A stretch of DNA of 64,000 nt from Candidatus Methylomirabilota bacterium (GTDB taxonomy: Bacteria > Acidobacteriota > Thermoanaerobaculia > Thermoanaerobaculales > Sulfomarinibacteraceae). The stretch is taken from assembly GCA_035464095.1 (NCBI GenBank), contig DATHSO010000080.1, forward strand, positions 4,024 to 68,023. The letters run 5' to 3'. Below the pieces are notes generated by a model. That model worked only from the letters and a program-made list of their open reading frames with translations, ran no database searches and was not told where the DNA came from. Shown one piece after another: positions 1,258-4,200 of this stretch (position 1 is the stretch's first letter; every line of letters starts with the position of its first letter). The position numbers and the translations under genes were made by a program.

Positions 1258-4200
1258 CTACCTCCTGGTCCCGCTCGCCGAGAAGTACGCGCACTCGGGA
1301 TGATGGAACACGAACGCCGACACGCTCGCCTCGGGGTCCATCATCATGCCGTCGGTCAGCGACACGCCGATCTCGTCGGGGTCGAGGAGGCGCCAGATGA
1401 TGCGCTGCTGGTCGAGGTCGGGGCAGGCCGGGTAGCCGGGGCTGTAGCGCTTGCCCCGGTAGGCGGCGCGGAAGCGCTCCTTCATGGTCAGCTCGGGCGG
1501 GTCGGGGAAGCCCCACAGCTCACGCAGCCGGCAGTGGAGGCGCTCGGCGGCGGCCTCGGCGGTCTCCACGGCGAGGGACTGCAGCGCGTGGCTGCGCAGG
1601 TACTCGCCGTTGGCGCGTTCGACGGCGGCCCGCTCCCGCACGCCCTCGCCGGCCCCGACCACGAACAGGGCCACCGTGTCGCGGCGGCCGTCGGCCGGCG
1701 GCAGCACATAGTCGGCGAGGCACAGCCCGTCGTCCTTGGGCTGGCGCGGGAACTCGAGGTCCGCCACCGGCGACGAGGCGCCGGGCTCGAAGAGGTGGAC
1801 GGTGTTGCCCTCGGCCTCGGCCTCGAGGAAGCGCCAGACCTCGGCGACCCGCATCCACGCCTCGGCCTCGGCCTGGAGCTCGCTCACCACCTCGACCACC
1901 TTGCCGAGCGTGGGATCGGCCTCGGCGAGCAGGCGCTCGAAGCTGCCCCGAAGCCCGAGGTGCTTGCCGTAGAGCATCTGCGGGTTGAGGTACGACCAGA
2001 CGTCCCGCAGGTCGTCGACCCGGCCGGTGACGTGACGGTCGAGGTTGGGCGGGGAGGGGAGGGGGAGGTCGACGCGGACCCGGGAGGAGCGTGACGGTGC
2101 CGGGTCAGACGATCTTGACGATTCGGCTTGAGCGGAATCGTCAAGATCGTCTGACCTGGCACCGCCGAGACCGTCGATCAACGACTGCCGCCGATCGGGG
2201 TCGGTCAGCCCCTGCATCACCTCGAGCCCCCGCATGGCGTCGGCGCAGTAGATCACCGGGCCGCCGTAGGCCGGGGCGATGCGCGACCGGGTGAAGCCGG
2301 CGGACAGCGCCGCGCCGCCGACCAGGACCGGGACCTCGATGCCGGCGGCTCGCAGGTCCTCGGCTGTCACCACCATCTGGTGGGCCGACTTGACGAGCAG
2401 GCCCGACAGCCCGACCGCGTCGGGCCGGTGCTCCCGGCAGGCGGCCACCAGCCGCTCGGGCGGCACCTTGATGCCCAGGTCGACGACCTCGAAGCCGTTG
2501 TTGGCGAGCAGGATCTCGACCAGGTTCTTGCCGATGTCGTGGACGTCGCCCTTGACGGTGGCGAGCACGACCAGGCCGCGGCTCGCCGTGTCGGCTTCGT
2601 CCATGTGGGCCTCGAGGTGGGAGACCGCGGCCTTCATGGACTCGGCGGACTGCAGGACCTCGGCGACGATCAGCTGGTTGGCGTTGAACAGCCGCCCGAC
2701 CTCGGTCATACCGGCCATCAGGGGGCCGTTGATGATGTCGAGGGGGGCGGCGCCCTCGGCGAGCTTGAGGTCGAGGTCGGCCGTGAGCCCTTCGCGGGTG
2801 CCTTCGATGATGAAGCGGGCGAGGCGCTCATCGAGGCAGAGCTCCTCGGTGGTGCCCCGGGGCGCGTGCTTGACGTCCCGGAAGCGTTCAGTGAGGCGGG
2901 CGATGTTGGCGCGGTTGATCGCCTCGCGCTGCTCGGCTGTTTGTCGCCTCCAATCGAGCGGGATGGGTGCCAGGTCAGACGATTCAGACGATTTCACATC
3001 GGCGAAATCGTCTGAATCGTCTGACCTGGCACCCTCGGGATGATTGAACAGCAGCGCCTCGGCGTCCCGGCGGACGTCGTCGGGGATCGAGGCGAAGCGC
3101 TCGAGGCCCTGGCTGTTGACGATGGCGAGGTCGAGGCCGGCCTTGGTGCAGTGGTAGAGGAAGACCGAGTTGACGACCTCCCGGGCCGCGGGGGGCAGGC
3201 CGAAGCTGACGTTGGAGATGCCGAGCACGGTCCGGCAGTGGGGCAGGGCCTGCTTGATGAGCCGCAGGCCCTCGATGGTCTCCACCGCGCTGCCTATGTA
3301 GCCGGCGTCGCCGCTCGCCGCCGGGAAGACCAGCGGGTCGAAGACCAGGTCGTGGTCGGCCAGGCCGTAGGTCCCGGTCAACAGCTCGTGGCTGCGCAGC
3401 GCGACCTCGAGCTTGCGCTCGCGGGTGAAGGCCTGGGCGTCCTCGGGGTGCTCGTCGATGGTGCCGACGACGGCCGCAGCCCCATAGCGGCGGAGCAGGG
3501 GGCAGATCGCCTGGAAGCGCGCCTCGCCGTCCTCCAGGTTGATGGAGTTCACGATCGCCCGGCCCTGGCAGTAGGTGAGGGCGAGCTCCACCGCCTCGGG
3601 GTCGGTGGCGTCGATCATGAGCGGCGCCTTGACGGAGCGCACGAGGCGCTCGTAGAAGGCGCGGATGTCGGCGAGCTCGTCGCGGTCGGTGGTGGTCAGG
3701 CAGACGTCGACGATCTGGGCGCCGCCGGCGACCTGGGCGCGGGCGATCTCGGCCGCCTCGTCCCAGCGCTCGCCGGCGACCAGCCGGCGGAACTTCCTCG
3801 AGCCGAGCACGTTGGTGCGCTCGCCGACGAGCAGCGGGCGGTTCTCGGGGGTCGACTCCACCAGGTCGACGCCCGAGAAGAAGACCCGGGTCGAGCGCCG
3901 CACCGGGAGCGGCCGCGGCCGCTTGCCCTCGACCATGGCGGCGATGGCGGCGATGTGGCGCTCGGTGGTGCCGCAGCAGCCGCCCACCAGATTGAGCCAG
4001 CCGGCGTCGGCGAATCGCTGGAGCTTGGCGGCCAGAGTGTCCGGGGTCTCGGGGTAGCGGCCGTCCTCGTCGGGCAGGCCGGCATTCGGGTAGCAGGAGA
4101 CCGCGGCGGCGGTCATCTCGTGCACCGAGCGCAGGTGGTCGGTCATGAACTCGGGGCCGGTGGCGCAGTTCAGGCCCACCGCCAGGGGCCCGGCGTGCTC

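Follow-up and report, generated by a model that had tools for sequence, protein, structure and literature searches.

The 64-kb window analysed here, a stretch of 64,000 nucleotides of contig DATHSO010000080.1 (assembly GCA_035464095.1), carries two in-frame copies of a 66-bp palindrome in metH, the gene of the cobalamin-dependent methionine synthase. This palindrome is very probably a miniature in which two terminal inverted repeats (TIRs) of a transposase unit are joined end to end, and which is tolerated in frame in two linkers of the MetH protein. The unit belongs to the REP-associated tyrosine transposases (RAYTs), more precisely to those whose gene is flanked by long TIRs (TIRYTs). Four lines of evidence carry this reading: the arms are tied by their sequence to such a unit, the insert is an in-frame indel polymorphism among orthologues, both copies lie in linkers, and both are predicted to be disordered. 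The features concerned are the following, with positions counted in the window.

1258 to 4986, minus strand: metH, cobalamin-dependent methionine synthase, longest open reading frame (ORF), 1242 aa.
MetH residues, Pfam domains: Hcy 62-352, Pterin 388-624, B12 cap 719-792, B12 805-895, activation 1038-1237.
2965 to 3034: palindrome copy 1 (site 1), arms 2965-2995 and 3004-3034, loop 2996-3003, 66-bp core 2967-3032.
2095 to 2164: palindrome copy 2 (site 2), arms of 34 nt, 94% complementary, 87.5 bits under the covariance model R1 described below.

At site 1, two arms of 31 nt each, 100% complementary, enclose an 8-nt loop; the perfect 29-nt arms and 8-nt loop which the first-pass annotation of this DNA had placed at 2967-3032 are present as the core of these longer arms. 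The 29-mer was found at two places in the window, both of them site-1 arms, for an expectation of 0.00 (100 shuffles). An 80-nt stretch at the site folds with -67.5 kcal/mol as RNA and with -42.6 kcal/mol as DNA, with z = -16 in each case, and the site scores 93.6 bits under R1. The arm, GGTGCCAGGTCAGACGAT, contains a 9-nt tandem repeat (TCAGACGAT twice) and has no self-complementarity: folded alone as DNA, a single 31-nt arm gives -0.9 kcal/mol (z = 0.5), i.e. no hairpin. At the foot of the complete hairpin, GTGC is paired with GCAC.

The insert corresponds to 22 codons that leave the MetH frame open, as had been claimed, and its peptide, GARSDDSDDFADVKSSESSDLAP, read from the minus strand, forms MetH residues 652-674. 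It was also rightly described as acidic and rich in serine. The TGA reported in another frame is true for the coding strand, on which both other frames run into this codon. The position first proposed, between the pterin domain and the B12 cap, matches the Pfam boundaries, since the insert falls in the gap from Pterin_bind (388-624) to the B12 cap (719-792), in what will be called here the Fol–Cap linker.

The peptide looks of low complexity, and one might think of a chance palindrome, of a low-complexity linker or of an assembly artefact. The probability of this explanation is practically nil, given the shuffle expectation of 0.00, the folding z values of about -16 and the occurrence of the same DNA element at dozens of unrelated loci. 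Moreover, the 1242-aa protein was found identical in an independent ENA assembly, which excludes an assembly artefact, and the same insert was present in several further assemblies.

The site-2 copy had escaped the earlier inventory, in which the site-1 palindrome was correctly listed and the other palindromes of the window with the same foot were likewise overlooked. Its peptide, GARSDDLDDSAQAESSRSSDPAP (MetH residues 942-964), is a near-repeat of the site-1 peptide; its hairpin folds with -63.9 kcal/mol, and by the Pfam boundaries it follows the B12-binding domain (805-895) and precedes the activation domain (1038-1237). The inner stems of the two copies differ from each other by compensated changes (TTCAGAC/GTCTGAA versus TCTTGAC/GTCAAGA).

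An AlphaFold2 model was obtained for MetH residues 380-1000 with 48 aligned sequences (mean predicted local distance difference test, pLDDT, of 80.4; predicted template-modelling score, pTM, of 0.69). The Fol, Cap and Cob modules were modelled confidently, and pLDDT fell below 50 at three coil stretches, namely residues 656-670 and 942-966, which fall on the two inserts, and the short stretch 705-709 of the Fol–Cap linker. Both inserts are predicted by this model to be disordered coil. Among orthologues, the insert peptides are variable and indels are tolerated. The inserts would be nearly neutral for MetH function, and the parsimonious reading is that of an extra disordered linker which the enzyme tolerates. 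Judging from the frame, kept intact in many lineages, they are probably translated; detection of the tryptic peptides SDDSDDFADVK and SSESSDLAPIPLDWR would mark translated inserts.

A metagenome scan with a 17-mer of the arm yielded at least 120 loci, and a scan of GTDB genomes for GTGCCAGGT-N45-75-ACCTGGCAC at least 119; the counts and distributions given below concern the matches listed from these scans. Among the GTDB matches, the family is present in other metagenome-assembled genomes (MAGs) of Thermoanaerobaculia and Acidobacteriota. Many of the metagenome matches are "solo" ends, which were resolved as the two ends of a unit of about 1.06 kb.

L178, 227 to 1298: unit of about 1.06 kb.
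L220, 327 to 1383: unit of about 1.06 kb.
L126, 1071 to 2127: unit of about 1.06 kb.

The ends of this unit are the same 27-29-nt arm, GTGCCAGGTCAGACGATTCnGACGAT, and its inverse, and they flank an ORF of 326 aa that begins with MPRAPRILIEGGLYHV and carries an HYH motif and the sequence YIHLNPV. The encoded protein matches Pfam Y1_Tnp (3.5e-9), NCBIfam NF047646, the REP-associated tyrosine transposase (85.8 bits, cut-off 80), and the E. coli TnpA-REP structure (PDB 4er8, 1e-3). It possesses a C-terminal extension of about 185 aa, and Y1_Tnp is the sole domain detected in the protein at E < 0.01. The same architecture is found on the long contigs L243, L244 and L245, which read in order CATCC, GTGCCAGGTCAGACGATTCCGACGAT, the ATG and TAG of the gene, ATCGTCGGAATCGTCTGACCTGGCAC and GGATG. 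Deletion derivatives retain N- and C-terminal fragments of the transposase (763 bp in L180, 532 bp in L223), end motifs are also found paired 201-382 bp apart among the metagenome matches, and fused-end repeats of 55-119 bp are made up of two arms and a loop. As these short forms are two arms plus a loop of the same unit, the metH palindrome is best regarded as a TIR–TIR miniature of it, and the arms are TIR-like and not REP-like because a single arm does not fold. The first-pass annotation knew of no such family with these termini, but relatives exist: the arms are the TIRs of a REP-associated tyrosine transposase unit of the RAYT/TIRYT class.

The contigs of the transposase homologues (P0122-P0241, at least 120 listed) are mostly 1.03-1.5 kb long, that is, about one unit, which suggests repeat-collapsed short-read assemblies of a multicopy unit resembling an insertion sequence (IS). 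Full-length elements bounded by the 9-nt end motif at a distance of 300-4000 bp were not found among the genome loci listed. In the window, Rfam at gathering thresholds returned only a tRNA.

Long terminal inverted repeats without coding capacity, a size series from full-length unit to miniature copies, and many transposase contigs about one unit long, which suggest a multicopy IS-like unit, would also suit an ordinary MITE (a miniature transposable element with inverted repeats), derived from a DDE-type insertion sequence and moved by cut-and-paste with target-site duplication. We consider such an origin very unlikely. The sole protein found between GTGCCAGGTCAGACGAT ends is a Y1/HUH REP-associated tyrosine transposase and not a DDE enzyme, no direct repeats stand beside the copies, whose flanks tend to prolong the palindrome, and site 1 has gained a net 66 bp exactly, without any duplication of the target.

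To describe the pairing of the arms, covariance model R1 was built from 10 copies; it gave 113 strand-matches, each element being counted on both strands. In the R1 alignment, 95% of the cells are Watson-Crick paired, 26 of the 32 pairs are changed on both sides, all four pair types are used at position 21/120 and G:U pairs are few; since the alignment was fitted to the model, these figures lean towards structure. The scarcity of G:U argues for symmetry at the DNA level rather than for selection on RNA, and from the sequences the palindrome appears to be constrained at the level of DNA. Such a symmetry could come from the copying of both arms, from hairpin-templated correction, or from recognition of a single-stranded DNA hairpin by the transposase.

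An alignment of 60 MetH homologues revealed that site 1 is a presence/absence polymorphism of 22 residues among proteins 76-87% identical. Among the 31 closest sequences, 12 have the site filled (the query, P0004, P0005, P0007, P0008, P0010, P0012, P0013, P0015, P0017, P0029 and P0030), and the remaining closest orthologues are empty, FNxG[DE]xA being followed directly by PxDWREQ. When filled and empty alleles were compared as DNA, the difference was exactly 66 bp and no target-site duplication was seen. A lineage-specific indel that coincides exactly with the palindrome, for which the first-pass annotation had proposed to look, is thus present, and distant orthologues are without the peptide. 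Some alleles deviate: P0011 has flanks of the filled type and no insert, P0017 has a central deletion, and the loops of P0015 and P0030 are enlarged, all these changes being multiples of three. Filled alleles share their flanks, with P-x-G before the insert and I-P-x-DWRRQ after it (about 2940-2966 and 3035-3060 in the window), where empty alleles have G-[DE]-x-A and P-x-DWREQ; the E-to-R change adjoins the strongly acidic insert.

Site 2 is filled throughout nearly all of the close clade and absent in homologues of 72% identity or less, and is therefore older than site 1. It has decayed in some lineages, e.g. L120 and L182, and in L121 it has undergone four AT-to-GC changes, mirrored between the arms and confined to their first 18 bp. 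In locus L249 (P0008), both sites carry the variant GGTGCCAGGCCCAAnGATTTTGACGATTCT; in the sister locus L250 (P0005), site 2 carries it as well and site 1 is of the usual TCAGAC type.

These observations bear on the proposal that the hairpin is a selected functional element of metH, acting in ribosome pausing between modules, in transcript regulation or as a reversible linker cassette, its palindromy being kept by selection. Palindromy does last at the old site 2 despite divergence, as the double AT-to-GC changes of L121 illustrate, and orthologous sites hold different sub-family variants that are each nearly perfect (L249 versus L250). The metH hairpins are highly stable (-64 to -67 kcal/mol), both copies are located exactly at domain boundaries, and the flank substitutions common to filled alleles include the E to R beside the acidic insert. 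Nevertheless, we judge a selected function unlikely. The copy has decayed or been deleted without loss of the gene in some orthologues (site 2 of L120 and L182, P0017, P0011), many close orthologues function without the site-1 insert, and the same element is dispersed in unrelated intergenic spacers; in addition, the strict Watson-Crick pairing with few G:U favours copying or homogenisation of DNA over selection of an RNA structure.

Other repeat-derived in-frame inserts were observed in the same Fol–Cap linker of distant Acidobacteriota MetH proteins (P0038, P0035, P0039, P0040, P0043 and P0046), with peptides such as ENSKFEIRNSN and SELRIENSKL. In the metH gene of P0038 (L248, 2001-5714), the insert DNA consists of heptamer runs: GAAAGTC four times, GAATTCG/AAATTCG five times, and GAATTCA/AAACTCA. 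Repeats seem to land recurrently in the Fol–Cap linker. Directly upstream of this metH (L248, 1164-1930), a gene for a 144-aa Y1_Tnp protein is flanked by canonical GTAG-tagged REPs (GTAGGCGCGCATC). A copy of 67 bp in a long-read Acidobacteriota MAG (L011, 4096-4162) was rejected as a new locus, as it proved to be metH site 2 in a frameshifted gene, which points to a sequencing indel at the hairpin or else to a pseudogene.

Among the matches listed, 46 dimeric short copies of 55-119 bp were found. Every copy of 66 bp lies in metH (two in the window, two in L084, two in L122, one in L182 and one in L200). Apart from the 67-bp metH copy of L011, the other copies, about 35 in number, measure 55-64, 84-96 or 119 bp, any length modulo 3, and appear to be intergenic. 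In L036, for example, copies occur in four spacers in a row within one operon, where each is preceded by a stop codon and followed by the next ribosome-binding site; elsewhere a copy lies in the spacer from eutN to an aldehyde dehydrogenase gene (L188), upstream of ispG (L215) or upstream of a rubrerythrin-like gene (L202). Because only the metH copies are intragenic among these 46, in-frame insertion is an exception for the family. Apparent in-frame copies in L188, L161, L172, L215 and L202 were discarded, as the long ORFs spanning them proved on inspection to be antisense, or spurious and due to high GC, or the copy stood just upstream of a start codon. A peptide-profile search with a doubled 46-aa query in 5.8 billion proteins gave 201 word-sharing candidates and a single match at E <= 10 (E = 0.2), its power being low for a motif of 23 aa. 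No copies were found in 20 kb around the transposase of L243.

The first-pass annotation had compared the element with Rickettsia palindromic elements (RPEs). The resemblance holds as far as the outcome is concerned, namely an in-frame palindromic repeat of a protein gene, read as a hydrophilic peptide; an RPE-type family, however, is not what was found, since a cognate transposase unit exists and in-frame copies are exceptional. That the element is a member or a direct relative of the RPE families is extremely improbable. Its host is an Acidobacteriota-type MAG, its tyrosine-transposase unit is present, its length is 66 bp versus 100-150 bp for RPEs, and among the copies listed it lies in frame in metH only and not in many genes. 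Furthermore, RPE-4 and RPE-6 of R. conorii have been assigned to CGTC-tagged repeats, which bear a different tag (PMC3733652).

Several points weigh against a TIR–TIR miniature mobilised by a TIRYT. No transposase gene is present in the 64-kb window itself, and the link to TIRYTs therefore rests on related contigs, not on the source genome. The window contains only two copies of the metH-type sub-family, both in one gene, and the census of copies is a biased sample, whose proportions are those of the matches listed and not genome counts. Neither a target-site duplication nor a target motif was found at the copies, beyond a flanking G at 76% of the ends. In a neighbour-joining protein tree, the site-1-filled alleles are scattered and not monophyletic, and scattered filled alleles sharing a flank signature are not explained by a simple one-off neutral insertion. 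Insertion more than once at the same spot, recombination over short tracts and gene conversion from one of the two copies to the other could each account for the shared flanks together with the scatter. Lastly, no experiment has so far shown TIRYTs to transpose TIR repeats, and for REPINs too transposition is largely inferred (PMC3733652, PMC3116915).

With the TIR–TIR miniature as the preferred reading, the following scheme can be proposed. The element would be non-autonomous and consist of the left and right 29-31-nt TIRs of a TIRtron of about 1.06 kb, joined by a short loop, a TIRtron being the gene of a RAYT-like HUH/Y1 tyrosine transposase (TIRYT) between long inverted repeats. The palindrome would fold to a hairpin in single-stranded DNA, and the transposase, acting in trans, would presumably excise this hairpin and insert it again, as has been suggested for REP/REPIN-RAYT systems; we infer that the mobilising enzyme was a TIRYT. 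The family would normally be intergenic in this Thermoanaerobaculia-type Acidobacteriota lineage, and two copies would have come to lie in MetH's longest two flexible linkers. In either orientation, one frame of the 66-bp palindrome is free of stops and specifies an acidic, Ser-rich peptide; through this stop-free reading of 22 codons, the insert would be translated as an extra disordered linker and tolerated.

Regarding the host, the NCBI protein HSL17503.1 starts at M42 of the ORF (nt 4863), is 100% identical to the product of the window and is labelled "MAG TPA: methionine synthase [Methylomirabilota bacterium]". Its closest relatives bear the labels Thermoanaerobaculales, Holophagae, Acidobacteriota and Ca. 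Sulfomarinibacteraceae, in conflict with the Methylomirabilota label, and the latter is probably wrong for the source MAG.

The foot of the metH palindromes recurs in the window. The exact 9-mer occurs 8 times, each time at the end of a palindrome, and the other same-foot palindromes are as follows.

14245 to 14332: 88-bp palindrome with the foot GTGCCAGGT...ACCTGGCAC and a different inner stem, ACGGCGACTTGACAAACT, between two minus-strand ORFs.
35276 to 35363: second 88-bp palindrome, of the 14245-14332 sub-family, with the same foot, intergenic, 40.2 bits under R1.
43755 to 43827: 73-bp imperfect palindrome, TTGCCAGGTGCGGCATTGTGC...GCACAATGCCGAACCTGGCAC, whose foot is a degenerate form of the same one; at 43402-43497 there is a weaker relative.

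The palindrome at 14245-14332 scores 42.5 bits under R1 and folds as DNA with -39.2 kcal/mol (z = -8.5). Outside the window, long palindromes with the same 9-nt motif and unrelated inner stems, some of them perfect, were found among the GTDB matches listed in Bdellovibrionales, Peptococcaceae, Planctomycetota, Massilia, Richelia and others; the pattern demanded both motif copies and gives no measure of motif enrichment. The palindrome often extends outward beyond the motif with variable sequence, and because it continues past the motif, the latter is an internal conserved duplex and not the physical end. Independent support comes from an Alphaproteobacteria MAG (L044), where CAAGGTGCCAGGTACACTTGAA units stand on either side of a RAYT homologue, and from L119, where the C-terminus of a RAYT is followed by AAACCTGGCAC repeats. 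No paper mentioning the motif was found in literature searches that combined GTGCCAGGT or CCTGGCAC with palindrome or RAYT terms, and the cross-phylum GGTGCCAGGT foot appears undescribed so far.

All these palindromes may be hairpin elements mobilised by tyrosine transposases and comparable to those with GTAG and CGTC tags; the conserved duplex of 9-10 bp, between variable outer and inner stems, would then be the module of transposase recognition or cleavage. The metH copies, for their part, may be kept perfectly palindromic while sub-family variants are swapped at the same two codon positions, and the swap would proceed by precise excision and re-insertion or by hairpin-templated gene conversion. 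Taken jointly, a phylum-spanning third-tag superfamily of GGTGCCAGGT-footed palindromes and an active turnover in metH make a tentative proposal, which we hold to be possible rather than likely. If the turnover is true, the element would be a reversible in-frame "linker cassette" in an essential enzyme. The GGTGCCAGGT foot, found beside RAYT genes in Acidobacteriota and in an Alphaproteobacteria MAG, can be put forward as a candidate for the motif that the TIRYTs, a poorly understood branch of the HUH transposases, recognise.

Some further observations were made on these repeats and their surroundings. In Acidobacteriota and Gemmatimonadota loci (L008, L049, L057, L059, L066 and L079), the arms are composed of tandem GGTGTCA/GGTGCCA heptamers ending in ACCTGGCAC, which suggests for some families that a heptamer repeat includes the foot as one of its units. 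A sigma-54 promoter was considered, CTGGCAC resembling the -24 box, and rejected, as the flanks are without a TTGC box at the right spacing. At 14226-14340 and 35254-35395, both arms of the 88-bp palindromes contain CTTGACAAACT, which resembles a -35 box, and further half-sites, CTTGACGAACTC and GAGTTCGTCAAG, stand just outside in a nested arrangement. In the region 43400-43900, two imperfect palindromes with a GCCAGG foot are each followed by a direct repeat of about 70 bp (GTCCCGG.GGAGGCGC...CCGGAGGCGCG..GCTGCCGCTGAC), upstream of the tRNA gene at 44781-44852. Finally, an AT-rich palindromic array of AATTGAG/AATTAAG heptamers lies at 41677-41834 in this genome of 70% GC, between convergent ORF ends (TAA 41676-41678; TCA 41838-41840), and its inverted arms, about 36 nt long, show 83-89% complementarity.

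For annotation, these results mean that the acidic stretches of 22 residues in such MetH proteins should be taken for a transposon-derived linker and not for functional motifs; no exotic cause is needed for this odd feature of the essential metH gene. Empty, filled, partly deleted and variant-replaced alleles at two fixed sites also constitute a natural series on hairpin mobile DNA in a coding sequence, and the same series bears on how much disordered linker the domain-swapping MetH tolerates.

Among known systems, the TIRtrons are the closest. They were described by Di Nocera, De Gregorio and Rocco (2013, PMC3733652) as RAYT-like genes (TIRYTs) flanked by long TIRs, with moderately abundant TIR dimers and with a distinct group in Acidobacteria. 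The present family shares with them a Y1 RAYT-like gene between long inverted repeats, instead of short REP hairpins, and dispersed TIR dimers, its 326-aa protein being longer than the classical RAYTs; the gene is flanked in this way in L178, L220, L126, L243, L244 and L245, all of them related contigs. The TIRs of that class are often described with GGGGWSAS, whereas here the motif is GGTGCCAGGT and the best match to GGGGWSAS is 6/8 (CAGGTCAG); GGGGWSAS is, however, not obligatory for the class (PMC3733652). According to Quentin et al. (2018, PMC6006769), most TIRYTs fall in TnpA-REP subclass 2.1, whose proteins have a C-terminal HTH or DnaA_C-like domain; in the C-terminal half of the present protein, neither was detected with Pfam at E < 0.01. 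We found no published report of intragenic copies for TIR families, the reported intragenic cases being GTAG and CGTC REPs.

The REPIN-RAYT systems and the E. coli REP/BIME with TnpA-REP (PMC3116915; PDB 4er8) also have a long hairpin made of two inverted repeats, an HUH transposase gene flanked by repeats, and repeats that are mostly extragenic, often downstream of ORFs within operons. They differ in that the arm described here is not itself a hairpin, its foot being GTGC...GCAC and not an unpaired 5' GT[AG]G guide. It is thus distinct from the canonical REP, where GT[AG]G is the foot of an imperfect hairpin of 20-40 nt, and from the REPIN, which consists of two inverted hairpins. Moreover, RAYTs are typically single-copy, whereas the 1.03-1.5-kb contigs suggest a multicopy, IS-like unit. 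The double-foot REPs of subclass 2.4, ascribed to a central deletion of an inverted pair (PMC6006769), likewise form a long hairpin with a tetranucleotide foot at the 5' side and its reverse complement at the 3' side, but their foot is GT[AG]G/C[TC]AC and their hosts are mainly Cyanobacteria and Bacteroidetes; here, GTGC/GCAC is followed by a conserved CAGGT. DDE-derived MITEs are defined by a target-site duplication and a DDE parent, while our copies have no flanking direct repeats and a parent that encodes a Y1 transposase.

RPEs and the Coxiella QMITEs (PMC5896051) are palindromic mini-elements that also lie in frame in protein genes and add a hydrophilic peptide. They occupy many genes of reduced intracellular genomes and have no identified cognate transposase, whereas the element described here was found in one gene (among the copies listed) of a free-living lineage, with its cognate transposase unit identified. 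RPEs are set apart from the metH element by host phylum, length and transposase association.

In-frame insertion of REP-type dimers is itself an already published phenomenon. Intragenic GTAG and CGTC REPs were reported in Opitutus terrae, Thauera and Rickettsia conorii (uvrA, uvrB and dnaE, among others); more than half of such REPs are dimers that encode 20-30 aa, some ORFs carry two of them, and their tolerance in flexible linkers or loops was argued by the authors (PMC3733652). In-frame REP insertions, in loops or linkers, are also known within tnpA-REP genes (PMC6006769). The metH copies resemble these cases in being in-frame dimers that add 22 residues, two of them in one ORF. They differ in the motif, which belongs to another repeat family, in the host gene, which is metH where the others are mostly DNA replication and repair genes, and in the orthologue series, with gain, loss, internal deletion and variant replacement at two sites. 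The double insertion in an essential modular enzyme, the possible turnover at fixed sites and the apparently undescribed cross-phylum foot are what make the present case noteworthy beside those already known.

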